A stretch of DNA of 64,000 nucleotides from Armatimonadota bacterium (GCA_029553475.1 JAKPKV010000137.1:69976-133975); one strand, 5' to 3'. Positions 33,827 through 53,384 are shown, counted from the stretch's first letter. Notes: generated by a model not told the origin, from the letters alone. Numbers and translations are program-made.

Positions 33827-34282
33827 ATGACCGATACCATCACCATCCTGCCGATGACGGCGGACCATATCCCGCAAGTGTATGCGCTGGAGCGGGTGTG
33901 CTTCACCGCGCCGTGGGCGCTCTCCGCGTACCTGAGCGAGCTGCGCAACCCGTCGGCGTATTACCTGGTGGCGCTGCGGGATCATCACCTGCTGGGCTAC
34001 GGCGGCATGTGGGTGGTGGAGACGAACGCGCACGTGGTGACGCTGGCGGTGCGGCCGGAGTGCCGCCGCCAGGGATTGGGGCGCAGGCTGATGGCGGAGT
34101 TGCTGGCGGAAGCCCGCCGCCGCGGCGCGGACGAGGTGACGCTGGAGGTGCGCGCCGGCAACGCCCCCGCGCAGGGGCTCTACGCCGCGCTGGGCTTTCA
34201 GGCCGTCGCCCGCCGCCGCGGCTATTACCCCGACAACAACGAGGACGCGCTGGTGATGCGGCTGGACCTGCGCCGCGCGTGA
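33827..34282 (+). CDS. rimI: ribosomal-protein-alanine N-acetyltransferase RimI
   Basis: 151 aa GNAT. ..VCFTAPWALSAYLSEL.., VRPECRRQGLGRRLM, LEVRAGNAPAQGLYAALGF. Confidence 0.85.
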   Translation: MTDTITILPMTADHIPQVYALERVCFTAPWALSAYLSELRNPSAYYLVALRDHHLLGYGGMWVVETNAHVVTLAVRPECRRQGLGRRLMAELLAEARRRGADEVTLEVRAGNAPAQGLYAALGFQAVARRRGYYPDNNEDALVMRLDLRRA

Positions 34283-34386: not shown

Positions 34387-35613
<1,227 letters not shown>

Positions 35614-35668: not shown

Positions 35669-36952
35669 TCAGTTGTCGAACAGCACCATGCTCAACGCGC
35701 CCGCGCCGCAATACACCCCGGTTCCGGCCGTGGCGCGGATGCGGACGGTGCCCGGGCCCCGCACGCAGAATCCCGCATAGTACGCATTGAACGTTGATCG
35801 CACGCCGTCAGTCCCGCCGGGCAAGGTGATGGCCGGGGTCACTTTTTTGACGACCCCGCCCGTGTCCGCGACGTCGAAGACCAGCGGGGAGCCGCCGCAC
35901 ACCGGCAGCGCATACAGCGTCACCACGTGCAGCGCGCTGTCGGCGAGGGCGACGTTCACGCTGACGGCACGGCACATATTGCGCGGGTGAGGGCCGCTCG
36001 CGGGATTGTCAGCGGTGAAATAGAGGCCGGCTTTGGAGGACAGACCGTTCGGCCCCTGCGCGACCTGCGTGCGCTGATCAGCAACCGCCATGTTTTCCGG
36101 CATGGCGGTGAAGGGGGCGGTAAACTCCCGCACCGCGGACGAAAAATGGCCTTGATCCAGGGTAAACCGGAACGAGAGGCCGCTGGCCCAGGCGGGGAGC
36201 TGCGTTTTGATGTCCGCCGTGACCGGCGTGCGCCCGGCGGTCTCCCCGGTGTAAATCCAGTAGCCTTGCTCGCCGTAGTTGGAGAGGTCAACGGTGCCCG
36301 CCGCGGTGGTCGGGAACGCGAGTTGGGGACCCACCACCACGTCCCACAGGCGGAGCGGCGCGCGCTTGCCCAGCTCGGGCGGATTGAGATACAGGTCATG
36401 ACGCTTGAGCGCCGCCGTCACATCGTCCTTTTGCAGCGAGATATAGACGGCATGTCCGTCCACGGCGGATACCAGAAATCCCTCGTTATGCCGGGCGTCA
36501 ATGTCTTCATTGCCCCGCACCAGCGTGTAACTGGCGAGTGAATCCTTGTGCCGTTTCAGATCCGCGGTGAGCACGGTCTGCTCCGGATACGTGATGTCGC
36601 CCAACGCCGTGTCGAACAGGAACCAGTTGAATCCGTATTCCGGACGACCGCTGTTGCCCATGCCTTTCGTGCCTGACAACGACGGACAGTCATAGATGTT
36701 CGACTCGTTATAGGCGCCGAGCACCGTCGGCCAGGGTATGTCGCCGGTGTTGACGGGAAAGATCTCGCTGTGATCCTGCACGAACATGCTGACGGCAATG
36801 GCCTGCTGCCGAACGTTGTTCAGGCATTGGGACTGTTGGGCCTTCTCGCGGGCTTTCGCGAAGACCGGGAAGAGGATGGCGGCCAGAATCGCGATGATCG
36901 CGATGACCACCAGGAGTTCAATGAGGGTGAACCCTCGTCTCGCGGAGACCAT
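35669..36952 (-). CDS. prepilin-type H-X9-DG family protein (operon 1, promoter-proximal gene)
   Basis: ATG at 36952 after [55 protein letters not shown]. Confidence 0.88.
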
Positions 36953-37093: not shown

Positions 37094-37118
37094 TTCCGAG
37101 AAGCGCGCATTTTCGGAA
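37094..37118. repeat. recombination-site-like inverted repeat A (9-7-9)
   Basis: TTCCGAGAA-GCGCGCA-TTTTCGGAA. The extended match to site B covers 37093-37124 (29 of 32 positions). Confidence 0.85.
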
Positions 37119-37224
37119 GTTAGTAGGCGTAAATAATCATGATGTATGGCGCTCCGTCACGCGCGGGAGCGCCTCCGCGGGGCGTGGCGGCGCGGCAATA
37201 GTCGCGAAAGTAGAGGGGAACGGG

Positions 37225-37398
37225 CAACAGTTCAGTCCTGTCAGCATGTCGCCGATTGATGGCAAACCTAACCCCCCGCCCCCCTTCCCTGAGAGGGAAG
37301 GGGGAGTGATGGGTGTGCAGCTCCGGTGCTCCCCTCCCCGCTTAGGGGAGAGGTGGGCGGGCAGACGCCACATCACGCTGACAAGACGGAACGGTTAC
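37225..37398. mobile_element. MITE-like 174-bp insertion inside cassette 1
   Basis: Absent from the homologous position of cassette 3. Flanked by a 9-bp direct repeat GGGAACGGG (37216-37224 and 37399-37407). Imperfect terminal inverted repeats CAGTTCAGTCCTGTCAGCATG / CACGCTGACAAGACGGAACGG. Contains an R4-type twin hairpin. Confidence 0.65.
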
Positions 37399-37413
37399 GG
37401 GAACGGGGTGCGC

Positions 37414-37443
37414 TTGACAAAACAGACCCATGATGGGTAGACT
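37414..37443 (+). promoter_or_regulatory. promoter P1 inside cassette 1 (reads rightwards, away from operon 1)
   Basis: TTGACA-18 nt-TAGACT, ending 3 nt before site B. Homologous to P3 on the opposite strand. Confidence 0.6.
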
Positions 37444-37446
37444 AAC

Positions 37447-37471
37447 TTCCGAAAATGCGCGCTTTCCGGAA
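37447..37471. repeat. recombination-site-like inverted repeat B
   Basis: TTCCGAAAA-TGCGCGC-TTTCCGGAA. The spacer is the exact reverse complement of the site A spacer. Confidence 0.85.
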
Positions 37472-37619: not shown

Positions 37620-38717
37620 CTATTCCACCCAGAAGGCCATCATCTCCGTACAGCCGTTGCCCTGGGCGCCGGTGTCGAACGGTTTGACGGGATCCACTTC
37701 GAATTTGACGCCTTTCACATCGTAGAACTCGGTCTCCGCGGCGCGAATGTCCCAGACGATCTTCGCGCCGCTCTCAACCGGCGCGGTGTCGCGCAGATTG
37801 CGCGGGCCGGATTTCGTGCCGAATTCCACCCAGGTGCTCGTGCGGGCGTCCAGCACGTAGACCTGGCAGGGGCCCACGCTGACGGTATCTTTTTCGCCGC
37901 CGCGGATTTTTATATAGTTGACGCGCGCCAGCGTCGGCAGAGAGAATTCGCACCAGAACGAAGAATTTCCGTCCCAGCGGCAGCGCGGGGTGGTGTAGCT
38001 CACGTATTCGATGCCATCCGAGATGTGCTGGATCGGGTTCCACGAGGTCAGCGGCTGGCTGCTCACCTTCGGCACGATCCCTTTCAGCAGGCTGGAGGCC
38101 GCGCTGGTATTGGAGGTGGCGGTCGCCTCGGTCACCGGCGAGTTCGCCGCGCCGCTGGAGGCCAGGGATACTCCCTTCAGCGTCATGCCGTCGGCGACGG
38201 TCTGCGGGCTTTTCACCACGATGTTGTCGGCGTGGCCATCCACCGCCACGAAGTTGAAGCTGTTGTTGTGACGGGGGTCAATATCCGTCGTCTGGCTGAT
38301 GGCGCAGGCGCCGGTGAAGGCGCTTTTCTTCAGGTCGGCGCACAGCACCGCGGAGGTGGGGGACAGCACCTCGCCCATGACTATGGGCGCGTACAGGTTC
38401 TTGTTGAAGCCGTATTCCGGCGCGGTGTTGGTGCCGGTGCCGGTGAACGATGGGCAGTCGTAGATGGTCGGCCCGTTGTACGGCGTCAGGTAGGCGCCCC
38501 AGGCGCTGCCGCCCGGATCGGGGAAGAAGGTCTGGTTGTTGTCCTGCACGTACATCTGCACGGCGACGGCGATTTGCCGCAGGTTGTTCAGGCAGGAGTT
38601 CTGCCGGGCTTTCTCCCGCGCGCGGGCGAACACCGGGAAGAGGATCGCCGCCAGGATGGCAATGATCGCGATCACCACCAGCAGCTCGATTAACGTAAAA
38701 CCGCGTTTCCGCATCAT
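37620..38717 (-). CDS. prepilin-type H-X9-DG family protein with discoidin/galactose-binding-like C-terminal domain (operon 2, distal gene)
   Basis: ATG at 38717 after [57 protein letters not shown]-terminus [32 protein letters not shown].. is paralogous to the next gene. Confidence 0.88.
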
Positions 38718-38753: not shown

Positions 38754-39860
38754 TTACAGGACGAAGAAGGCCATCATCTCCGTGCCGCCGTTCCCCTGCA
38801 CATTCGTGTCGTAACCCGCCACCGGGTCCACGACGATCTTGACGCCGGACACGTCATAGTAGTTGGGCGTCATCGCGCGGATGTCCCAGAGCAGCGTGGA
38901 GCCGCTGGTGCCGCTGGGGTTCAGGTTGGTGGCGGCCGTCTTCGCGCCGATGTTCACCCATTCCCCGGTCTCTTTGACCTGCAAGGAGAGCTGGCACGGG
39001 CCGATGGAGATGGTGTCTTTCTCGCCGCCGCGGAATTTCAGATAGTTCACGCGCAGGCCGTACGGCAGCTCCCAGACCACGGTGAAGCTGCTGTCGCGGG
39101 ACCAGCGGCAGCGCGGGGTGGTGTAATTGATATAGTCCACGCCATCCGAGAGGTATTGAATCGGATTCCACGACGCCAGCGGCGCGGGGGTCGGTGTGCC
39201 GACCAGCCCTTTCAGCAGGTTGTTGATGGCCATGGCCTGGCCTATCGCGATGGGCTCCTCCGTGTTAATGATGGCATCCGGGCCGTAGAGCAGGTATTTG
39301 CGCGCGGGGAGCGCCTGCTTGATCGTCTGCCCGGCCAGGTTCTCGGTGGCGACGTGGCCGTCCAGGCAAGCCAGCAGCGCGTTGCCGCCGTGGCGGGGGT
39401 CCATGTGCTCGTATTTGGTGAAGGCGTAGTTGTCTTTGAACTGCGTCTTGGCGAGGTCCGTCGCCACGATGTACGTTTCCGGGGGCGTCAGGTCGCCGAG
39501 GGCGTAGCCGAAGAGCCAGCCATTAAAACCATACTCCGGGGCGGTGTTGGTGCCTTTGCCCTGCAGCGAGGGACAGTCATAAATGCTCGGCTCGTTGTAG
39601 GGGGCGAGATAGGCGGACCAGGGCGACGTCTTCGAATCCGGGAAGAGCATTTCGCCGTGATCCTGGAGATACATGCTGACCGCGATGCCGATCTGCCGCA
39701 GGTTGTTCAGGCACGACGTCTGGTTGGCTTTTTCGCGCGCCTTCGCGAAGACGGGGAAGAGGATGGCGGCTAAAATCGCGATGATCGCGATCACCACCAG
39801 GAGTTCGATGAGGGTGAAGCCCGCGCGGCGGCGGGTCCCTCTGCTCGGCAGCTGAGACAT
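38754..39860 (-). CDS. prepilin-type H-X9-DG family protein with discoidin-like C-terminal domain (operon 2, proximal gene)
   Basis: ATG at 39860 after [77 protein letters not shown].. Confidence 0.88.
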
Positions 39861-39907
39861 ACCCTACACTCCTTTCAAAAAGAACGTAGTATGGCCAACG
39901 CGATAGG

Positions 39908-39932
39908 TTCCGAAAATCGTATGTTTTCGGAA
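39908..39932. repeat. recombination-site-like inverted repeat C
   Basis: TTCCGAAAA-TCGTATG-TTTTCGGAA. Confidence 0.85.
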
Positions 39933-40053
39933 ACCAGCGGGCGAAAATGTTGCTGCCGGGCGCTCTGTGACGCCTGAATGGGGGGTATTTTGCCTCCGAG
40001 GGCTGCTGTCCGGGGCGCTACCGGGGGCATTGGCGGGCAAAGGCTCCCGATAC

Positions 40054-40083
40054 TTGACAAGAAAGGTCCTTGTCGCATATATT
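40054..40083 (+). promoter_or_regulatory. promoter P2 inside cassette 2
   Basis: TTGACA-18 nt-TATATT, ending 4 nt before site D. Confidence 0.6.
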
Positions 40084-40087
40084 TAAG

Positions 40088-40112
40088 TTCCGAAAACATA
40101 CGATTCCCGGAA
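40088..40112. repeat. recombination-site-like inverted repeat D
   Basis: TTCCGAAAA-CATACGA-TTCCCGGAA. The spacer is the exact reverse complement of the site C spacer. Confidence 0.85.
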
Positions 40113-40370: not shown

Positions 40371-40402
40371 GACGCGCCCGGTGCCAGGGCACCGGGCGCG
40401 TC
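40371..40402. terminator. hairpin terminator (paralog of 34288 and 37565)
   Basis: GACGCGCCCGGTGCCAGGGCACCGGGCGCGTC, 25 nt beyond the stop of the 40427 gene. Confidence 0.6.
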
Positions 40403-40426: not shown

Positions 40427-41584
40427 CTAGGGTTCGAAGACCAGGTAGGCGGCGCCCCTGTTGCAGCCGGTCGGGCCACTGAGCTGGATGCTCGTGGCTT
40501 TCCCCGCCTCGCAGGGTACCAGGAGGAAGCCGACGGAGGCTTTATCCGTGGAATTGGCCGAGGCTTTGATGACCTGGTTCAGGGTGACGGTGTTGGTCCC
40601 GGTGGTCACGCTCTGGATGGTGAAGGACGCGTTCGCATTGGTGTCAGCGGAGGTGAAGACCACGCCGACCTTGCGGATGCCGCTGGCATTCGGCACGAAG
40701 GTCACTTTCGCGGTGGTGACCCGGCCATCGTAGTCGCCGAATGGCGGCTGGATGTTCGCGCCGTTCCAGTTGAGCCAGGAGTTGCCGTTCCAACTGGACA
40801 GGGAGCCGCTCACCAGCGTCCAGGTGCCGTTGTCGCTCCACCAGCCCGGGTTGCCGGTGGGCATGAGCAGCATGCTGCTGGCGCCCCCGGTGCCGGCGGC
40901 GACCAGGGAGGCGATCTTCGAGATGCCGACGCCGCCCAGGAGGCCCTGCACGCTGCCGTCCGAGCGCTTCAGGTTCTCCGCCAGCAGCACGAACGGCACG
41001 CCGGCCACTTTCGAGCCTTTCGCCAGCGAGTAGGCGAAGGTGGCGGCGGTGATGTTGTCCTTGGTGAGGTAGCCGACGTGGCCGTCCACGTAGCCGAAGA
41101 CGGCGCCGTTGTTGTGGCGGCCCGTATCGCACTGCGCGAGCGCTTTCGCCAGGTCGCCGGTGTCGCCGTCATCCACGTAGGGCTTGCCGGTGGCCGGGCT
41201 CTTCAGCTCGGCGAGCATCACCGCCTCCACCGCGGAGCCGACGTCGTTGAGCGCCGCGCCCGAGAGGAAGGAGCCGGCGACGAAGAAGTAGTCCGGCTGC
41301 ACTGACTTGCCCATGAAGCTGGTGGTGGGACAGTCGAAGATCTTGTTCTCCGCGCCGTAGTTGGCGGCAAGCTGGCTGTTCCAGCCGGTGGCCGACGGCA
41401 GCTTGGAGTCGTGGTCCTGCGCGTACATGGTCATGCCGATGCAGAGCTGCCGGACGTTGTTCATGCAGGTATTCTGCCGGGCCTTCTCACGGGCTTTGGC
41501 GAATACCGGGAAGAGGATCGCCGCCAGGATCGCGATGATCGCGATGACGACCAGGAGCTCGATCAATGTAAAGCCTTTTCGCAT
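40427..41584 (-). CDS. prepilin-type H-X9-DG family protein (operon 3, distal gene)
   Basis: ATG at 41584 after [55 protein letters not shown]. Confidence 0.88.
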
Positions 41585-41613: not shown

Positions 41614-42765
41614 TTATTCCTCGAAGGCCAGGCTCATGCCGCTCCAGCCGGGGATGGCGCTGTAATCGAGAGTGATCTCGATGGTCTTGCCGGCTTCGAC
41701 GGGGATGGCCAGGAATCCGGCCGCCACCTTGCCGCCGCTGGACTGGAGGGATTTGTTGAGCGTATACGTGTCGGCGCCGATCTTGATGGTCGAAAGCCGC
41801 GTGATGCCCACGCCCAGGCTGTCCCAGCAGCTATACATCACCACCAGCTTCTTCGTGACGGGCGTGGTCAGGCTGGCGTGCGGGACGATCGTCACCGTCG
41901 CGATGCCTGTGCGGCCGTCGCCGTCGCCGCAGATCGGCACGCGGTTCGCCCCGTTCCAGCGCACGCCGTTCCAGTCGTACACGGTATTCGTGCCGACGAC
42001 CTGGGTGAACGTCGGCATCGCCGACCACCAGGTGGGCGTGCCGGTCGGCTCCACGGCGGTCGCTTTGTTGTACAGCAGTTTCGTCACGCCCAGCGCCTTG
42101 CAGGTGGTGTAGAAGGTCTGCGCGGTGTCGCGGGCGGGCGTCATGCCGTCGGCGATCTGCCCCATCCACGTCGGCTCGGTGACGACGACGTTGGGATTCA
42201 TGCTGGGGGCGAAGAAGCCGGCGTTGATCTCCTCGCGCTTCACCCAGGCCACGTGGCCGTCCAGGAAGGCGAAGACCGCGCCGCCGTTATGGCGGGCGTC
42301 CGCGGTGGCGACGGCGGTCAGCGGATTCTGCGTGCCGTTGTCGTTGATGTACGGCGGGTTTTCCCCGGGCCCGGACTGGTCGCCGACGATGGGCGCGAGC
42401 TCCGGATACTTCACGTCGCCCAGCGCCATGCTGTCCAGGAAGGAGCCGGCCACGTAGAAGTAGTCCGGCTGGGTGTCGGTGCCCACGTGGGTGATGGAGG
42501 GGCAATCCCAGACTTTGCCGGTCATTCCGTAGTGCTGCGCCAGCACGCCGTACCAGGTTTTCGCCGGCGGCAGCCTCTCCTCGTTGTCCTGCACGTACAT
42601 GCTCACGGCAATGGCAATCTGCCGCTGGTTGTTCATGCAGGTGTTCTGGTTGGCCTTCTCGCGGGCTTTCGCGAAGACGGGGAACAAGATGGAGGCCAGG
42701 ATGGCGATAATCGCGATCACCACCAGGAGTTCGATGAGGGTGAACCCTCGTTTCGGGGAGACCAT
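41614..42765 (-). CDS. prepilin-type H-X9-DG family protein (operon 3, proximal gene)
   Basis: ATG at 42765 after [55 protein letters not shown]. Confidence 0.88.
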   Translation of the reverse strand: MVSPKRGFTLIELLVVIAIIAILASILFPVFAKAREKANQNTCMNNQRQIAIAVSMYVQDNEERLPPAKTWYGVLAQHYGMTGKVWDCPSITHVGTDTQPDYFYVAGSFLDSMALGDVKYPELAPIVGDQSGPGENPPYINDNGTQNPLTAVATADARHNGGAVFAFLDGHVAWVKREEINAGFFAPSMNPNVVVTEPTWMGQIADGMTPARDTAQTFYTTCKALGVTKLLYNKATAVEPTGTPTWWSAMPTFTQVVGTNTVYDWNGVRWNGANRVPICGDGDGRTGIATVTIVPHASLTTPVTKKLVVMYSCWDSLGVGITRLSTIKIGADTYTLNKSLQSSGGKVAAGFLAIPVEAGKTIEITLDYSAIPGWSGMSLAFEE

Positions 42766-42892: not shown

Positions 42893-42917
42893 TTCCGAGA
42901 ATCCCGTATTTCCGGAA
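42893..42917. repeat. recombination-site-like inverted repeat E
   Basis: TTCCGAGAA-TCCCGTA-TTTCCGGAA. Confidence 0.85.
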
Positions 42918-42920
42918 ATT

Positions 42921-42949
42921 AATCTACGCATCACGGCCTATTTTGTCAA
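42921..42949 (-). promoter_or_regulatory. promoter P3 inside cassette 3 (drives operon 3)
   Basis: Minus strand TTGACA-17 nt-TAGATT, ending 3 nt before site E. Confidence 0.65.
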
Positions 42950-43063
42950 GTAATCCCACGCGTTCCCCCGCCACTTCCGCGACTATTTCAGCGTCTCCAC
43001 TCCCACGGGGGCGCTCCCGCGCGCGTGACGGAGCGCCACGCCTCACGATGTACGCCCGCTGAC

Positions 43064-43088
43064 TTCCGGAAATACGGGATTTCCGGAA
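43064..43088. repeat. recombination-site-like inverted repeat F
   Basis: TTCCGGAAA-TACGGGA-TTTCCGGAA. The spacer is the exact reverse complement of the site E spacer. Confidence 0.85.
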
Positions 43089-43410: not shown

Positions 43411-43426
43411 TGCTAAAGCGCTTCAA
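43411..43426. promoter_or_regulatory. LacI-type operator candidate O1, overlapping a TTGCTA-18-TATACT promoter
   Basis: TGCTAAAGCGCTTCAA (AAAGCGCTT core palindrome). TATACT at 43434-43439. Confidence 0.45.
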
Positions 43427-43479
43427 ACTCGCGTATACTGAATGCTTGGAAGCATCCGTGCCGGCGGAGAATCGAGTGG

Positions 43480-43493
43480 TTAAAGCGCTTTAA
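43480..43493. promoter_or_regulatory. LacI-type operator candidate O2
   Basis: Perfect 14-bp palindrome TTAAAGCGCTTTAA, about 95 nt upstream of the LacI-family gene. Confidence 0.5.
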
Positions 43494-43587
43494 TCAGTAT
43501 TGATAAAATTATAACACGGACAGATAGCTCTGTCAATGCGACGGCGGCTCTATTACCGAAAAAAGCTGGCGGGGAAAGGAGGCGACG

Positions 43588-44751
43588 ATGACTGATCTGC
43601 CCATCGCGGGATTATCCGTCCGCGCCGTCACCCTCAAAGACATCGCCGCGCACTGCGGGGTGTCGCTGGGCACGGTGTCGCTGGCGCTGCGCGACGACCC
43701 GCGCATCAGCACGGATACCCGCGCGCGCGTGCTGGCGGCGGCAGCCGAGCTGGGATACGACCCCACGCTGCATCAGGCGGCGCGCCGGCTGGCGCTCAGC
43801 AAGCACGGCCGCGACGTGCTCAATCACGTCATCGCGCTGATCGCCCCGTCGGGCTTTCACCGGCCGGGCTATTTCGCCGAGCTGCTGCACGGCATCATGG
43901 ACGTGCTGGTGCCCGCCGGCTTTTGTGCGCTCATCACCTACATTTACTCGCACGAGGACGCCCAGGAGACGACCATCCCCAGCGCCCTGCGCGCGGGCAT
44001 TGTGGACGGCCTCATCAGCATGGTGCGCCCGGAGCCGGTCATCGCGCTGCTCGACACGCTGCGCCGGCAGCCGGGATTCGCCCGCCGCCCCACCGCCTCG
44101 CTCATCTGGGAGATGCCCGGCAGCTCCTGCGTGCGCGCCGATGACGAGGGCGCCGGATACGCCCTGACGCGGCGCCTGCTCGCGCTGGGGCACCGGCATT
44201 TCCTGCAGTTGACCTTCCTGCTGCCCTACAGCAAAACGATGGAACCCCAGAACTACCGCATCGCGGGCGCGCGGCGCGCGCTGGCGGAGGCCGGCCTCGA
44301 TCCGGACCGCCACCTGCTGCTCGCGGACATGTCGAACTTCAATTGGCTCAACCCGGCGCATATTGACTCGGACCAGCCCGAACTCGCGCAGGTGTGGGTG
44401 GGCGACCGGGTGTTGCCGCTGGTGGACGTGCTGCGCGCCCACCCGGCCATCACCGCCATCTTCGGCCTGAACGACGCCAGCGCGCTGCGCGCCTGGCGGC
44501 TGCTGGAAGGGGCGGGCTATCGCGTGCCGGCGGACTACAGCATCGTCGGCTTCGACGACACGACGCCCCGTCTCGACGCCGCGGGCGCCAACCAGCTCTC
44601 CTCGGCGCGCGTGCCGCTGCAGGAGATCGGCCGCGCCGCCGCAACGCTGATTATCGAACAGGCCACCGCGGCCGTGCCGCGCGCCCCCGCGGAGCTGGTG
44701 CTGCCGGTGGCGATGGCCTTCCGGGGATCGGTCGGCCCGGCGCGAGGGTGA
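43588..44751 (+). CDS. LacI-family transcriptional regulator
   Basis: 387 aa, ATG after AAGGAGG. N-terminal HTH VTLKDIAAHCGVSLGTVSLALRDDPRIS..TRARVLAAAAELGY, followed by a periplasmic-binding-protein-like fold. Confidence 0.88.
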   Translation: MTDLPIAGLSVRAVTLKDIAAHCGVSLGTVSLALRDDPRISTDTRARVLAAAAELGYDPTLHQAARRLALSKHGRDVLNHVIALIAPSGFHRPGYFAELLHGIMDVLVPAGFCALITYIYSHEDAQETTIPSALRAGIVDGLISMVRPEPVIALLDTLRRQPGFARRPTASLIWEMPGSSCVRADDEGAGYALTRRLLALGHRHFLQLTFLLPYSKTMEPQNYRIAGARRALAEAGLDPDRHLLLADMSNFNWLNPAHIDSDQPELAQVWVGDRVLPLVDVLRAHPAITAIFGLNDASALRAWRLLEGAGYRVPADYSIVGFDDTTPRLDAAGANQLSSARVPLQEIGRAAATLIIEQATAAVPRAPAELVLPVAMAFRGSVGPARG

Positions 44752-47780: not shown

Positions 47781-47812
47781 GGCGGGCGAGACTCTGTCAA
47801 GCCGCGCGTAGG
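47781..47812 (+). repeat. half-copy of the R5 inverted-repeat arm
   Basis: GGCGGGCGAGACTCTGTCAAGCCGCGCGTAGG, versus the arm GGAGGGCGAGACTCCGTCGAGCCGCGTGCGTAGG at 49559. It abuts the low-GC island. Confidence 0.75.
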
Positions 47813-47850
47813 ATAATTGATAATTATCACTGTCACAGTAAAAATGATAT

Positions 47851-48588
47851 CTATAAAATTACACGAATCGCCAATCCATCCTTGCCATTATCAATATAAT
47901 CACACCCATATTTTTGGGCTTTTAATAAACATTCAGCAATTTCCGTTTTTTCTTCTGTATTAGTACATCCCAGATTAATGAGCGCATAGGCACGGCAAAA
48001 CCAAGTAAGACCGCTATTCGGAAATAATTTACACAATTCTCTCATAACAACAACGGGTAGTATTGATTTTTCTTCTCCACATCTATCTAGTAATAAGACA
48101 AATAATTTTCTACTCATGTCTATGCATTGTCCAATATATGAATCGTCGTATTGATCAAAACTACGTAGACTTGCCACATGCCTCCAAGCATAAAAAGCAT
48201 CAATAAATTTTTCACAATCTTTGCGCGCAGTTGGATTGCTTGGATAAGCACTTGACGGAATAATGTCTTTAAGAATGTCTGATATTGTGCCTTCTATTCC
48301 ACATTTTTTACACTTCAAACCATTCCACTTGTGATCACTTGCCCGTGTCTTCCCACAAATATTGCATTTCTCACAATCTTTCGACCAGTCATGCCCTTTA
48401 TCACGAGTTTGCCCGCAGTTGGTACAGACACACCTGTTCCACCTATGTGCATTTGTGCGCATTGCCCCACACCGCGCGCACTGCTCGCAGTCCTGCGACC
48501 AGTCGTGCTCCTGGTCGCGTGTTCGTCCGCAGGCTGTACAGGTGCAACCCGACCAGGTATGCAATCCGAAAAGGCATGTCAGTTTCAT
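47851..48588 (-). CDS. Cys-rich repeat protein on a low-GC island, unknown function
   Basis: 245 aa, ATG after AGGAGG. Five tandem H-x-W-x(2-4)-C-x2-CG-x2-R units (HTWSGCTCTACGRTR, HDWSQDCEQCARCGAMR, HRWNRCVCTNCGQTR, HDWSKDCEKCNICGKTR, HKWNGLKCKKCG), then a ~150-aa AT-rich-encoded domain. Confidence 0.75.
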   Translation of the reverse strand: MKLTCLFGLHTWSGCTCTACGRTRDQEHDWSQDCEQCARCGAMRTNAHRWNRCVCTNCGQTRDKGHDWSKDCEKCNICGKTRASDHKWNGLKCKKCGIEGTISDILKDIIPSSAYPSNPTARKDCEKFIDAFYAWRHVASLRSFDQYDDSYIGQCIDMSRKLFVLLLDRCGEEKSILPVVVMRELCKLFPNSGLTWFCRAYALINLGCTNTEEKTEIAECLLKAQKYGCDYIDNGKDGLAIRVIL

Positions 48589-48716
48589 GGCTCCTCCTAC
48601 GTACTGTGGCTTGGACTATGTGAAAAACACATTCCTTGGGCAATATACGGTAGAAAATGGTATCTCTGCGATTTCCGTTAAAATAATGTCTTTAGGGATA
48701 TTCGTCAATTCATCTA

Positions 48717-49704: not shown

Positions 49705-51063
49705 TCACCCCTTCACAAACTTCACCACCCATGCTTCCTTGCACGGCAGTTCACCCACCGGCAGGCTAATCTCCGCGCCGTCGTCTGTCCGCGTCCAGTC
49801 GAGGGCGCCCGCGACGCCGAGCAGCGTGACTTTGCTGCCGGGGGCGGGCCGCAGGTCGCGCAGCGTCACCGTTGCCGGCGGTCGCTCCTGCCCCTCCTCC
49901 GCCAGCACGATGGCATACACCGTGTCGCCCTTGCTGGTGTAGCGCACCGGGCCCTCCGCGTAGGGGGCGATGGCGCGGGTGGCGTAGATCGCCTCGCCGT
50001 TCACCGCCATCCAGTCGCCGATGGCGCGCAGGCGCGCCAACTGCTCCGGCGCCACCGCGCCGTCGGGCATCGGGCCGATGTTCAGCAGAAAATTGCCGTC
50101 TTTGGCCACCGTATCCACCAGCAGGTGGATGAGCGTGCGCACGCTCTTGTAGCGGTCGTTCGGCCGGTACGCCCAACCATCGCCCATCGTCAGGCAGCTT
50201 TCCCAGGGGTGGCCCAGCGGGGCGTCGGGAATGACCTGCTCCGGGGTGAGGATGTTTTCGAAGGCGCCGCCCACCGTGCGGTCGGCGATGATGAGCCCCG
50301 GCTGGTGGCGGCGCGCCATGGCGGCGATGCGGTCCATGCGGATGTCCTGCCGCGGCGGCCGCACCTGCCCGCCATCCAGCCAGAGGATGTCAATCGGCCC
50401 GTAGCCGGTCATCAGCTCCTCGATCTGGTCGTAGACGAACTGCTGGAACCGCGCCCACTGCTCCGGCTTCGCCCGCGTGTCATAATTCGGGTTGCGGTCC
50501 GGCGCCGGCAGCGCGGGATCCCAATACGCTGGGTGATGCCAGTCGGACTTGGAAAAATAGCAACTGATCGCCAGCCCCTCGGCGCGGAAGGCGTCGAAAA
50601 CGTGCTGCGCGATATTCGCCCGCGGGTCGGCGTGGAACGGGCAGTCCGGCGCGGTGATGCGGTAATCGGTGGTCCGCGTGTCGAACATGCAGAAGCCGTC
50701 GTGGTGTTTGGTGGTGAAGGCCGCGTATTGCATCCCCGCGTACTTCGCCGCCGCCGCCCAGACGGATGGGTCGAAATTGACCGGATTGAAAGTGCGGTTG
50801 AGCGCCCAGTACTCCCGGCGGAAGCGCGACAGGTCTTTGCCGCGCTCCACCCAGCAGGCGAGATCGTCGGGCCGCGCCCAGGTGTCCTCCTCCACCAGCG
50901 GCCAGCTCTCGATGCACCCCCACTGGCAATACGGCCCCCAGTGGATGATCATGCCGAACCGCAGGTCCTGAAACCACGCCAGCCGCTGCCACAGCCAGTC
51001 CGGGTACTCCACCACCAGGTGATCCGCGGTGGAATGGTTGATGATATCGTCGCGCTCCGCCAT
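49705..51063 (-). CDS. alpha-L-fucosidase (GH29)
   Basis: ATG at 51063 after GGAGG. ..IIHWGPY.., FTTKHHDGFCMFDT, ..ILWLDGG.. GH29 motifs. Confidence 0.85.
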   Translation of the reverse strand: MAERDDIINHSTADHLVVEYPDWLWQRLAWFQDLRFGMIIHWGPYCQWGCIESWPLVEEDTWARPDDLACWVERGKDLSRFRREYWALNRTFNPVNFDPSVWAAAAKYAGMQYAAFTTKHHDGFCMFDTRTTDYRITAPDCPFHADPRANIAQHVFDAFRAEGLAISCYFSKSDWHHPAYWDPALPAPDRNPNYDTRAKPEQWARFQQFVYDQIEELMTGYGPIDILWLDGGQVRPPRQDIRMDRIAAMARRHQPGLIIADRTVGGAFENILTPEQVIPDAPLGHPWESCLTMGDGWAYRPNDRYKSVRTLIHLLVDTVAKDGNFLLNIGPMPDGAVAPEQLARLRAIGDWMAVNGEAIYATRAIAPYAEGPVRYTSKGDTVYAIVLAEEGQERPPATVTLRDLRPAPGSKVTLLGVAGALDWTRTDDGAEISLPVGELPCKEAWVVKFVKG

Positions 51064-51253
51064 GCGTCCGCCTCCCCACAAAGCTGGGAGCATTGTACCT
51101 GCGAGGGCGGGCCGCTGCCAACCCCTGTCCCGGCGCACGCCGTGCCCGCGCCGCGGTCAGGACCAGGCTGTGCGGAGTACAACTCCGCGGCCCCAGTATC
51201 GGCGGAGTGCAACGAACCAGGAACCAGGCTGTGCCGCCGGGGCATGCGTCGCG

Positions 51254-52315
51254 TCACCTCAGCACGAGCACGATGAAGCGGATCTTCTGGATCTCGAAGT
51301 ACTGCTGGGTGTCATCGTAGCAGGTGAGGGGGGTGATCCGGACATATCGCGCCTGCGCCGGGCTGCCGAATTGGTAGTCCTCGCCTCGGTAGTTCGTCAC
51401 GAACGTCGCCGGAGCGGTGGGGAGGGGCACGGCCAGGACATTCGGCGTGATGGTCACCGGCGTGAAGCTGGTGCCGTTGAGCGACACCGCCACGTTCGCC
51501 GTGCGCACGGCGTATTTGGCCGAGTTGGCCGCGTTCGTGTTCCATAAATGGAACGCGGACACGTAATACGCCTGCCCCAGGTCGTAAATCAGATGGACGT
51601 CTGTTTTCGTGCTGCTGCACCAGGGATAATGGATTTGATCATAGCCATACGTGTGCCCCGGCCAGATGGCGGGCACCTCCGCGCCGGTCACGATATCGGC
51701 GGACAGGCCGGTGGCGTCAAGCGTGTGAGAGGCGGGATAGAGCGCGCTATAGGGCTTGGACGCCGCCTCATCCACCCCGACGGGCTTCACCACCATCCGC
51801 TGCGCCCCGGCGGGGACGTCGGGCCCTTTATACGTCCAGGAGGCGCTCTTGTCGGTGGTTTCCACATGCCCATCCACGAAGGCCGCGATGGTCTTTTTAC
51901 TGTGGCGGGTGGCCGCCGTGGCGAGGTGCTGGCCGTCGGCGGTGCAGAAGGTGGCGGTGGGATCGGACACATCGCCGAGCGCGGTGCCATCCAGCACATT
52001 GTTATACACGTAGTCGGGGTTGGTGGCGGCGCCTTTCTTCGAGGTGGTCGGGCAGTCCCACACCTTGCCCGGGGTCTCCGCCGCCTGCGTCCAGGTGGCC
52101 GACCGGGGCAGGGTTTCATCGTAGTCCTGCGCGTACAGGGTGATCGCGGTGACGAGCTGGCGCTGATTGTGCATGCAGGTGGTCTGCCGCGCCTTCTCAC
52201 GGGCGTTCGCAAACACCGGGAAGAGGATGGCCGCCAGGATGGCGATGATCGCGATGACGACGAGCAGCTCGATCAGGGTGAACCCGGAATGCGGCCGCTG
52301 ATGATGATGAGACAT
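51254..52315 (-). CDS. prepilin-type H-X9-DG family protein with F5/8-type-C (discoidin)-like C-terminal domain (solitary copy)
   Basis: ATG at 52315 after [55 protein letters not shown]-terminus ..[26 protein letters not shown]... No flanking inverted sites; a TATAAT lies at 52347-52352 (minus). Confidence 0.88.
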
Positions 52316-52425
52316 CAGACGCTCCTTTCGCAAACTGATGCATGAAATTATAAGCGGCAGGCACGGCAGCGTCGTTCTCTGATACGGACTTAGTATTTCG
52401 CGATCCGGTCACGGGGGAGAATTGG

Positions 52426-52473: not shown

Positions 52474-53384
52474 TTAGGCGCCGACGTCAGTGCGGTACTG
52501 GCTGGGCGTCATGCCGAAACGGCGTTTGAAGAGCGCGCAGAAGTAGGCGACGTTGGCGATGCCCACCCGGGCACCGATGGCGGAGAGTTTCAGGTCTGTT
52601 TCGCGGAGCAGCAAGCAGACCTGGCGCATGCGCAACTGCAGCAGGTATGCCATCGGGCTCAAGCCCGTTTGCGCGCGGAAGAGGCGCGCGAGGTGGCGCG
52701 GGCAGTATCCGGCGTGCTGGGCGAGCGTGGCCATGGTGATCGGCTCCGCGAGATGCTGCAGCATGAACTGCTCGACCTGGGGCACCACCTGCGGCACGCG
52801 GGGATGGGCCGGCGGCGTCTCCGCAAACCAACCGGCCACGGCCAGCGCGTCGGCGGTCAGAGCACCGCGGCCATGGCGCGCATCGTCCAGCCGGGCCGCC
52901 CCTCCGCCGCCTCGGTAAAGATGTGCCGGCACATCGCGATCACCGCCGGGTCGGCAGGCCAGACCGACGGCACGGGGACGGCGACGGCGGGGTCCAGCGT
53001 CATCTGTACGGCACAATACACGCAGGTGTGCGCCGCGACAGCCCAGGAATGCTCGGTATACGGCGCATGCAGCATCATGCTGCCCGGCTGCAGCGCCTGC
53101 GGCGCGGCGCCCGGATACGCGGCCCCCCCCTGCACGATCACCAGCAACTCGTAATACGAGTGGGAATGGGGCGGAACCGTCGCGCCCGGGCGCATGGAGT
53201 GCAGGGCCACGTTCTCCAGCGTCATCGCGTAGTCGCCGACGGTGAACCGCGGCTGGTCGTGGAACAACCGCTCACACCGCTGGCGCAGCCACCACCAGCG
53301 CTCGGACGCCGTTTCCTGCACGCCACGCTGCATAAAAAAACACCCCCGGAACATCGGGACAGGCATCACCCCGCGCCAAGCCAT
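52474..53384 (-). pseudogene. AraC-family regulator split by a frameshift (cupin N-domain + HTH C-domain in different frames)
   Basis: ORF 52857..53384 encodes the cupin part (..PPHSHSYYELLVIVQG..) and stops at ..RAMAAVL*. ORF 52474..53016 carries the AraC HTH (..ITMATLAQHAGYCPRHLARLF..FKRRFGMTPSQYR). The frames join smoothly at about 52858-52866 if one base is added. Confidence 0.7.

Follow-up and report, generated by a model that had tools for sequence, protein, structure and literature searches.

The 64,000-nucleotide (nt) stretch of an Armatimonadota bacterium analyzed here (GCA_029553475.1, JAKPKV010000137.1:69976-133975; hereafter the window) is a chromosomal core region with a GC content of ~67%, encoding Ffh, S16, RimM, TrmD, L10, L7/L12, FtsZ, TsaE, and TsaD. 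The closest database homologues bear names such as 'bacterium ADurb.Bin429' and 'Armatimonadota bacterium', by which the organism is placed among Armatimonadota of anaerobic digesters. Six paralogous minus-strand genes, arranged as three pairs, are bordered by a GNAT gene (33827-34282) on one side and by a LacI-family gene (43588-44751) on the other, and each pair is headed by one short cassette in which a promoter is enclosed by two inverted sites. The subject of this study is the cassette c2, 205 base pairs (bp) at 39908-40112, upstream of the two pilin-like genes of operon 2. Together with its neighbors c1 and c3, it belongs to a family of elements with the build of invertible promoters, which face either toward the adjacent genes (ON) or away from them (OFF); in the window, c1 and c2 are OFF and c3 is ON (Table 1).

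A repeat finder detects a 25-nt inverted repeat at the two ends of c2 (39908-39932 and 40088-40112), 92% complementary (23/25), with 155 nt between its halves. Both halves, sites C and D, have a 9-7-9 layout, TTCCGRRAA-N7-TTYYCGGAA, in which two arms flank a 7-nt overlap. The overlaps, TCGTATG in site C and CATACGA in site D, are exact reverse complements, and both mismatches of the repeat fall in the outer arm of D. The pattern TTCCGAAAA-N7-TTTTCGGAA, with up to three mismatches allowed, occurs six times in the window against an expectation of 0.00 from 100 shuffles, and the six matches form three pairs (37094/37447, 39908/40088, and 42893/43064). Within each pair, the spacers are exact reverse complements of one another; between the pairs, they differ (GCGCGCA, TCGTATG, and TCCCGTA). 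An earlier reading made from the DNA alone (the sequence-only reading) had described C and D as inverted copies with complementary spacers and c2 as having the same architecture as c1. Inspection of the sequence and the repeat finder bear out the former, and the latter follows from the paired 9-7-9 sites and internal promoter found in both cassettes; its coordinates and sequences for c2 are all correct.

The predicted promoter of c2 is the second-best sigma-70 match between 34 and 44 kilobases (kb) of the window. A sigma-70 scan of this interval returned six promoter-like sites for 1.8 expected, and the three cassette promoters listed in Table 1 are among the best four, each ending 3-4 nt from an inner arm. 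In c2 the promoter stops 4 nt short of site D, and transcription would presumably start inside D in the present orientation. Beyond site D, no open reading frame (ORF) with coding-like GC content at third codon positions was found up to 40426; the perfect hairpin in this tract probably terminates operon 3 and would also meet transcription from the outward-firing c2 promoter. On the other side of the cassette, the ATG of the 368-residue pilin-like protein (39860, minus strand) is 47 nt from site C. The sequence-only reading had placed a TTGACA-18-TATATT promoter against site D, directed away from the operon, with the ATG about 45 nt from site C and nothing but noncoding DNA and the 40371 hairpin beyond the promoter, and our measurements agree on all three counts. 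Its further claim that the element is OFF is supported for the cassette: the promoter is directed away from operon 2, which agrees with an OFF orientation of c2. An OFF state of operon 2 itself holds in this assembly only, since a different cassette, cB, precedes the same 368-residue gene elsewhere in the ON orientation (see below).

Two features of possible RNA structure were noted alongside. In the predicted fold of the leader (39858-39910, minus-strand RNA), the Shine-Dalgarno sequence AAAGGAG is paired to a CGUUCUUUUU stretch that lies upstream of it (z = -2.4), and this predicted pairing could be a translational control element, or noise. Inside the cassettes, a strong GGCGCTCCG...CGGGAGCGCC hairpin is present in c1 and c3, and only a 4-bp version of it in c2. 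A conserved internal RNA structure or terminator was considered and dropped, as Alifold gave only site-to-site pairing and weak local helices.

Table 1. Features of cassette c2, of operon 2, and of the neighboring regulatory elements, in coordinates of the window.
Feature	Position	Strand	Description
Site C, gene-proximal recombination site (putative)	39908-39932		Outer arm 39908-39916 TTCCGAAAA, overlap 39917-39923 TCGTATG, inner arm 39924-39932 TTTTCGGAA
Site D, distal recombination site (putative)	40088-40112		Inner arm TTCCGAAAA, overlap CATACGA, outer arm TTCCCGGAA
c2 interior (putatively invertible)	39933-40087		155 bp; conserved blocks in the 14-cassette alignment (AGCGGGCGA near the far end), promoter at the opposite end
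c2 promoter (predicted, sigma-70-type)	40054-40083	+	TTGACA-18-TATATT; score 11/12; faces away from operon 2
Operon 2 leader	39861-39907	-	47 nt; Shine-Dalgarno AAAGGAG at 39869-39875
Operon 2 gene 1	38754-39860	-	368 residues; prepilin-type N-terminal methylation motif, DUF1559 start, predicted C-terminal CBM32/galactose-binding-like jelly roll
Operon 2 gene 2	37620-38717	-	365 residues (376 from the alternative start 38750); paralogous pilin-like protein
Hairpin, perfect 15-bp stem	40371-40402		-38.6 kcal/mol, z = -3.8; 25 nt past the stop of the upstream 385-residue gene; no U-tract
Cassette c1	37094-37471		378 bp; overlap GCGCGCA; promoter 37414-37443 (+) points away from genes 35669-36952 and 34387-35613 (OFF)
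Cassette c3	42893-43088		196 bp; overlap TCCCGTA; promoter 42949-42921 (-) points toward genes 41614-42765 and 40427-41584 (ON)
Fixed consensus promoter	43536-43508	-	TTGACA-17-TATAAT with TG; upstream of c3 and pointing toward it, divergent from the LacI gene 43588-44751
LacI-type palindromes	43480-43493; 43413-43426		TTAAAGCGCTTTAA and CTAAAGCGCTTCAA, respectively; downstream of the fixed promoter

The cassettes of the window are members of a larger family. An exact-pattern scan for a promoter combined with a site, run on JGI and ENA metagenome contigs, gave 22 loci, the majority in anaerobic-digester samples. These loci, together with contigs found through the encoded proteins, yielded a cassette table of 15 entries with 14 different overlaps, and both covariation and column identity were computed on an alignment of 14 cassettes. 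The family has at least 14 members, three in the window and at least 11 more on related anaerobic-digester contigs, all of a common design. The far end consists of the outer arm, the 7-nt overlap, the inner arm, and a conserved block, NNCAGCGGGCGA, followed by ~100 variable nt; the near end is formed by the promoter, CTTGACAAAA...GTATACT, then 3-4 nt, the inner arm, the overlap, and the outer arm. Mean column identity is 75%, but none of the 14 cassettes departs from TTGAC in the -35 element or from TA...T in the -10 element. In 14 of the 15 entries, the cassette precedes a pilin-like gene, or more usually two such genes, by 45-130 nt. The exception (L020 4726-4931 on Ga0116159_1013307, overlap ACGAACA) adjoins a gene for a secreted protein with an FGE-sulfatase-like domain, and the switch family is therefore not confined to pilin-like cargo. 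In a scan of 185,579 GTDB species genomes with the promoter-plus-site pattern, all six matches were solitary sites with no partner, and they came from Veillonella, Muribaculaceae, and a Proteobacteria metagenome-assembled genome (MAG). These were judged to be chance matches, and the family was not seen outside digester metagenomes.

The two overlaps of a cassette vary together. In every one of the 15 cassettes, each overlap is the exact reverse complement of its partner, and no overlap is palindromic. In the alignment, 98/98 cells are Watson-Crick pairs, with compensatory double changes at all seven overlap positions (38 cells). None of 500 shuffles matched the observed covariation score, and sliding the partner columns by 1-3 positions left a pairing of only 11-48%. 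Positions 1-2 of the overlap, beside the inner arm, are always pyrimidine-purine, and the others are free. From one cassette to the next, the overlaps are nearly always specific, not strictly unique. The core sites of tyrosine recombinases such as lambda Int, Cre, Flp, and XerCD have overlaps of 6-8 bp between inverted arms. Sites of the c2 type have this layout, with two inverted 9-bp arms, an asymmetric, protein-unconstrained 7-nt overlap, and overlaps that match between partners; their 9-7-9 geometry and the matching of their centers therefore point to a tyrosine recombinase core site.

Evidence that the interior has been inverted comes from the comparison of paralogues. The promoter is directed toward the gene in five of the 15 entries (c3, cB, L019, L024, and L035) and away from it in the other ten. 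Two of the cassettes, cA and cB, lie on a 133-kb sister contig (Ga0116243_10000229; loci L001, L005, L006, and L037), which carries four cassettes against three in the window. Cassette cA has the sites and the orientation of c2. Its paralogue cB (overlap TCACACG) has the same arms, but its interior, which differs at 4 of ~155 positions (~97% identical), is in the opposite orientation. Downstream of both, and in the window, 139 bp are identical, made up of the outer arm, the leader, and ~83 nt at the start of the gene. Identical junctions around an inverted interior are what is expected from recombination between the flanking sites, not from independent insertion. The sequence-only reading had proposed to look for the flipped state in related genomes or MAG strains: no cassette was found flipped, and homologous cassettes were found in both orientations at homologous genes.

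Some smaller differences between copies were recorded as well. Just inside site D, positions 40085-40087 read AAG in the window and GGT in cA; AAG is the version carried by cB, and its presence in both c2 and cB suggests a short gene-conversion tract between cassettes. The same 3 nt lengthen the inner arms to 12 nt in cA and in cB, not in the c2 of the window. Three independent assemblies (L043, L044, and L045) have contig breaks inside the gene-proximal site of a cassette with the overlap TGGCCTG. These breaks are suggestive and were not counted as evidence, as they lie in the overlap and not at the inner edge, at which the two orientations would part. In L045, the end of the overlap is different (AGTCA in place of GGCCA), a hint of strain-level variation or overlap swapping.

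On these grounds, 39908-40112 is quite probably a phase-variation switch, in which a promoter segment is inverted by a recombinase, most likely of the tyrosine class, acting in trans. The sites, their covariation, the two orientations among paralogues, and the absence of the site from related species are seen directly; from them, we infer that the segment still flips, that the enzyme is of this class, that the promoter is active, and that each cassette is insulated from the others. In the proposed mechanism, a recombinase dimer would bind the 9-bp arms (TTCCGRRAA), common to all cassettes, at each core site; sites C and D would be synapsed, and strand exchange across TCGTATG/CATACGA would invert the 155-bp segment. 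As it now lies, the promoter would fire away from operon 2 and toward the 40371 hairpin, leaving the operon OFF. In the flipped state, the promoter would lie 4 nt from site C, with its start in the inner arm beside C, and the operon would be ON: the transcript would cross site C and the 47-nt leader, which holds the AAAGGAG sequence, and continue into both pilin-like genes. At the 5' end of this RNA, the site is predicted to fold into a hairpin with a 9-bp stem. The enzyme, most likely a tyrosine recombinase whose gene lies in another part of the genome, would act on the whole family of at least 14 cassettes by way of their common arms. Because identical overlaps are needed for exchange and the 7-nt overlaps are private, a site would recombine only with its partner in the same cassette, and each promoter could flip independently without the chromosome being scrambled.

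Several results weigh against this reading. Searches for a tyrosine or serine recombinase came up empty, both in the window (Pfam on ~40 genes, plus motif scans) and in ~150 kb of related loci (motif scans, with Pfam on nine genes), so the enzyme must act in trans; the sole recombinase-motif match lies in an unrelated Proteobacteria locus. The low-GC ORF 47851-48588 was considered as a recombinase and rejected, its product being a Cys-rich repeat protein with no recombinase features. Contig look-ups and the metagenome scan revealed no single cassette in both orientations in any assembly; in every assembly examined, c1 and c2/cA are OFF, and cB and c3 are ON. Lastly, the overlap TGACACA is common to two cassettes only 79% identical (L021/L050 and L028/L046, sample 3300010344). 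The two (L046 9753-9957 and L050 9744-9947, both from that sample) head different genes and, if present in one genome, could recombine with one another and cause large rearrangements. The constancy of each orientation across assemblies from several samples and the missing recombinase are also what a frozen relic would leave, that is, a set of cassettes that once inverted and then lost their recombinase, with promoters fixed ON or OFF. We consider this unlikely. Assemblies report the majority state, so that a constant orientation neither supports nor refutes ongoing switching; consensus sequences hide minority orientations, and the search for the enzyme covered a small part of the genome. Overlap complementarity in 15/15 cassettes and the conservation of the arms, in an alignment with a mean column identity of only 75%, argue for continuing selection for recombination, and since this complementarity is intact, the enzyme is presumably still acting.

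If the segments do invert, the agent might instead be a serine DNA invertase of the Hin/Gin/Mpi type, which is distinctly unlikely in view of the sites. Serine invertase sites are ~26 bp long and arranged 12-2-12; the dinucleotide at their center is conserved, and a match of these 2 bp is all that is required. The cassette sites are 25 bp with an odd center and no conserved central dinucleotide, all seven overlap positions covary, and no resolvase motif occurs in any locus scanned. In favor of such an enzyme, the arms loosely resemble hix/gix half-sites (TT..C.AAAA), and Mpi of Bacteroides fragilis, the best-known case of many promoters with one trans-acting enzyme, is a serine recombinase (cited in PMC11602134). 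Two further explanations dispense with inversion in place. A multi-copy family with terminal inverted repeats, a conserved interior, and both orientations recalls miniature inverted-repeat transposable elements (MITEs), and the cassettes could be mobile promoter copies of this kind, inserted either way. This is highly improbable: there is no target-site duplication in the 8-nt flanks of the 15 cassettes, and transposition from a master copy does not produce a 7-nt block that is copy-specific and yet complementary between the ends. Moreover, the cassettes always sit at the same position with respect to homologous leaders and genes, and so were duplicated along with the genes, and cA and cB have identical gene-side junctions around opposite interiors. 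The 25-bp palindromes might also be operators, at which a dimeric transcription factor would loop a fixed promoter with no rearrangement of the DNA; each site is itself a 9-N7-9 palindrome, and LacI-type regulation is present in the same neighborhood. We rate this the least probable explanation of all, as it leaves unexplained why the spacers are complementary within cassettes and different between them, and why 10/15 promoters are directed away from the one gene beside them.

A separate matter is which genes c2 heads. The sister contig is 99.96% identical to window 39932-32754 and 98.9% identical over 3,002 nt to window 42647-39646, where the mismatches are concentrated in the 5' region of the gene. 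The window is without 3.2 kb of the sister contig, comprising a 411-residue gene, a 403-residue gene, a LacI remnant, and cB, and the breakpoint lies inside the 139-bp exact repeat; the segments compared are window 39646-39932 and L001 2716-3002 and 5929-6215. In the sister contig, the cassette equivalent to c2 (c2/cA) heads the 411- and 403-residue pilin-like pair and not the 368-residue gene; the latter is preceded by cB, ON, in four contigs, namely the sister contig and three short ones. The missing unit exists as a contig of 3,208 nt (DAOSJH010000445.1, L052; MAG GCA_035367115.1), circularly permuted, with cB joined to the 411-residue gene; its first 2,003 nt are identical to an ENA contig, and its join is the reciprocal of that in the window. 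Reciprocal joins could reflect either a true excision or deletion, or an assembler mis-resolving the repeat. It is possible, at less than even odds, that the adjacency of c2 and operon 2 is an assembly mis-join, c2 natively controlling the 411- and 403-residue pair and operon 2 having cB (ON). The extra 3.2 kb of the sister contig, the four contigs with cB before the 368-residue gene, and the reciprocal join of DAOSJH010000445.1 all favor a non-native pairing. A mis-join is harder to reconcile with the 3-nt change at 40085-40087, which with its 19-nt context occurs in neither cA nor cB of the sister contig, and deletion between 139-bp direct repeats is biologically easy. The difference at 40085-40087 is genuine, and it shows that the window belongs to a distinct strain instead of being simply a chimeric product of those reads that gave the sister contig. 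The cassette c2 and its orientation to the identical leader are unaffected by the choice between deletion and mis-join.

The controlled proteins resemble one another at their N-termini. All six cassette-headed genes of the window match PF07963 (~1e-9) and TIGR02532 (above cutoff), as well as the first 30-40 residues of DUF1559 (PF07596). For the 368-residue protein, sequence matches in the PDB cover the pilin alpha-1 helix only (residues 9-97). Its AlphaFold2 model (mean predicted local distance difference test score of 82) has an N-terminal helix at residues 17-67, a small pilin-like head, and a C-terminal beta-sandwich, for which the best PDB matches in Foldseek are CBM32/galactose-binding-like modules (E ~1e-5, template-modeling score of 0.6-0.7 on the target). 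A seventh prepilin/DUF1559 protein of the window (51254-52333, minus strand) has an explicit F5/8-type-C (CBM32-like) domain and no inverton; its neighbors are an alpha-L-fucosidase and a split or frameshifted AraC-family regulator (49705-51138 and 52474-53384). The presence of this paralogue beside a fucosidase supports a glycan-capture role for the protein family. From the modeled sandwich and the F5/8-type-C paralogue, the controlled genes look like they encode pilin or pseudopilin stalks with sugar-binding heads.

The origin of the cassettes was examined in three related Armatimonadota MAGs: GCA_002068615.1 (ADurb.Bin429), GCA_022708765.1, and GCA_964590255.1. All three have a syntenic locus (LacI, pilin pairs, GNAT, TsaD, and TsaE) with orthologues that are 61-68% identical, and the recombination site is absent from the syntenic loci of all three, even with five mismatches allowed. 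There, each pilin pair has in front of it a fixed consensus promoter and, downstream of this promoter, LacI-type palindromes (TTAAAGCGCTTTAA, for example). The same layout of a promoter and two operators, directly upstream of orthologous pilin pairs in the site-less MAGs, is found in the window at 43413-43536, which can be read as the ancestral regulated promoter of the pilin-like operons; operon 3 may be served by two promoters, one regulated and the other invertible. On the sister contig, cB directly adjoins a truncated LacI gene. The site-less MAGs, the promoter retained at c3, and the LacI remnant together indicate that cassettes were added to the leader (c3) or replaced substrate-responsive promoters (c1, c2, and cB). 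The cassette thus appears, from this comparison of loci, to be a lineage-specific regulatory acquisition.

Other observations concern the rest of the window. Cassette c1 is 378 bp long against the usual ~205 bp, and its extra ~170 bp, with G/C-rich palindromes, resemble a small inserted repeat element; an example from the interior of c1 (37140-37410) is CCCCTTCCC-TGAGA-GGGAAGGGG, near 37275-37300. A low-GC island at 47800-48700 (~50% GC against 67% elsewhere) contains a 245-residue ORF (47851-48588, minus strand), whose product has Cys-rich HDWS.DCE.C..CG repeats and no Pfam match; the island may have been horizontally acquired. No RNA gene was reported by Rfam and tRNA scans of the window.

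Promoters that invert are familiar from gut Bacteroidota, Enterobacteria, and Clostridia, and the c2 family shares traits with several known systems. Like fimS, which controls the type 1 fimbriae of Escherichia coli and is inverted by FimB/FimE, c2 is a short, putatively invertible sigma-70 promoter segment bounded by inverted repeats upstream of surface-filament genes, and the recombinase class would be the same. However, fimS occurs once, as a 314-bp locus, has 9-bp repeats and adjacent recombinase genes, and drives chaperone-usher fimbriae, whereas the c2 family has at least 14 loci, 9-7-9 palindromic core sites, no adjacent recombinase, and type IV pilin/pseudopilin-like genes. The Mpi promoters of Bacteroides fragilis, at capsule and other surface loci, offer the parallel of scattered cassettes with a shared consensus, one trans-acting enzyme (as proposed here), and a combinatorial surface repertoire; Mpi is a serine enzyme with the same repeat core at all loci, in contrast to the tyrosine-like geometry and locus-specific overlaps of the c2 family. 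RecV of Clostridioides difficile, which acts on cwpV and the flagellar switch, is a single trans-acting tyrosine recombinase with several unlinked target segments. The repeats of its targets are dissimilar, whereas the arms of the c2 family are nearly identical and only the overlap varies. In this respect, the family resembles heterospecific lox sites (lox511, lox2272, and loxN, with Cre) and FRT variants (with Flp), in which the same arms carry different spacers and only matching spacers recombine. Those are laboratory constructs with a 13-8-13 layout; the c2 sites are natural and 9-7-9, and their orthogonality would follow from the private overlaps. Site-specific inversion at type IV pilin-related loci is also known from the IncI shufflons (Rci acting on sfx sites, with a 7-bp spacer) and from Moraxella Piv. 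These systems invert coding segments that specify protein C-termini, the sfx sites share one spacer and shuffle mutually, and Piv is a DEDD enzyme; in the c2 family, a promoter would be flipped, between sites presumably insulated from those of other cassettes. The c2 family is distinguished from the inverton systems compared by its near-identical arms with cassette-specific overlaps, its host phylum, and its cargo, and it introduces no new principle. Full-text literature searches returned no reports of invertons in Armatimonadota or of phase variation of DUF1559/prepilin-like families, and Armatimonadota go unmentioned in a survey of 68,733 genomes that appeared recently.

A broader picture can be offered tentatively, at a little under an even chance. 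In it, one trans-acting tyrosine recombinase would run a genome-wide bank of at least 14 switches with private overlaps, so that the pairs of glycan-binding pilin-like genes would be switched independently, giving thousands of surface states with no rearrangement between loci, and this stochastic system would have replaced or overlaid the ancestral LacI-type control. If the switch is real, it would be a natural case of one recombinase multiplexed through heterospecific overlaps, and the arms and overlaps would form a set from which synthetic biology could draw candidate orthogonal recombination sites. Set against the site-less relatives, the locus would illustrate how a regulated promoter can turn into a stochastic switch. 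For the large and functionally obscure DUF1559/prepilin-like families, it would be the first regulatory handle, and for the organism, it would mean that an environmental polysaccharide degrader bet-hedges on its substrate-capture or adhesion apparatus.

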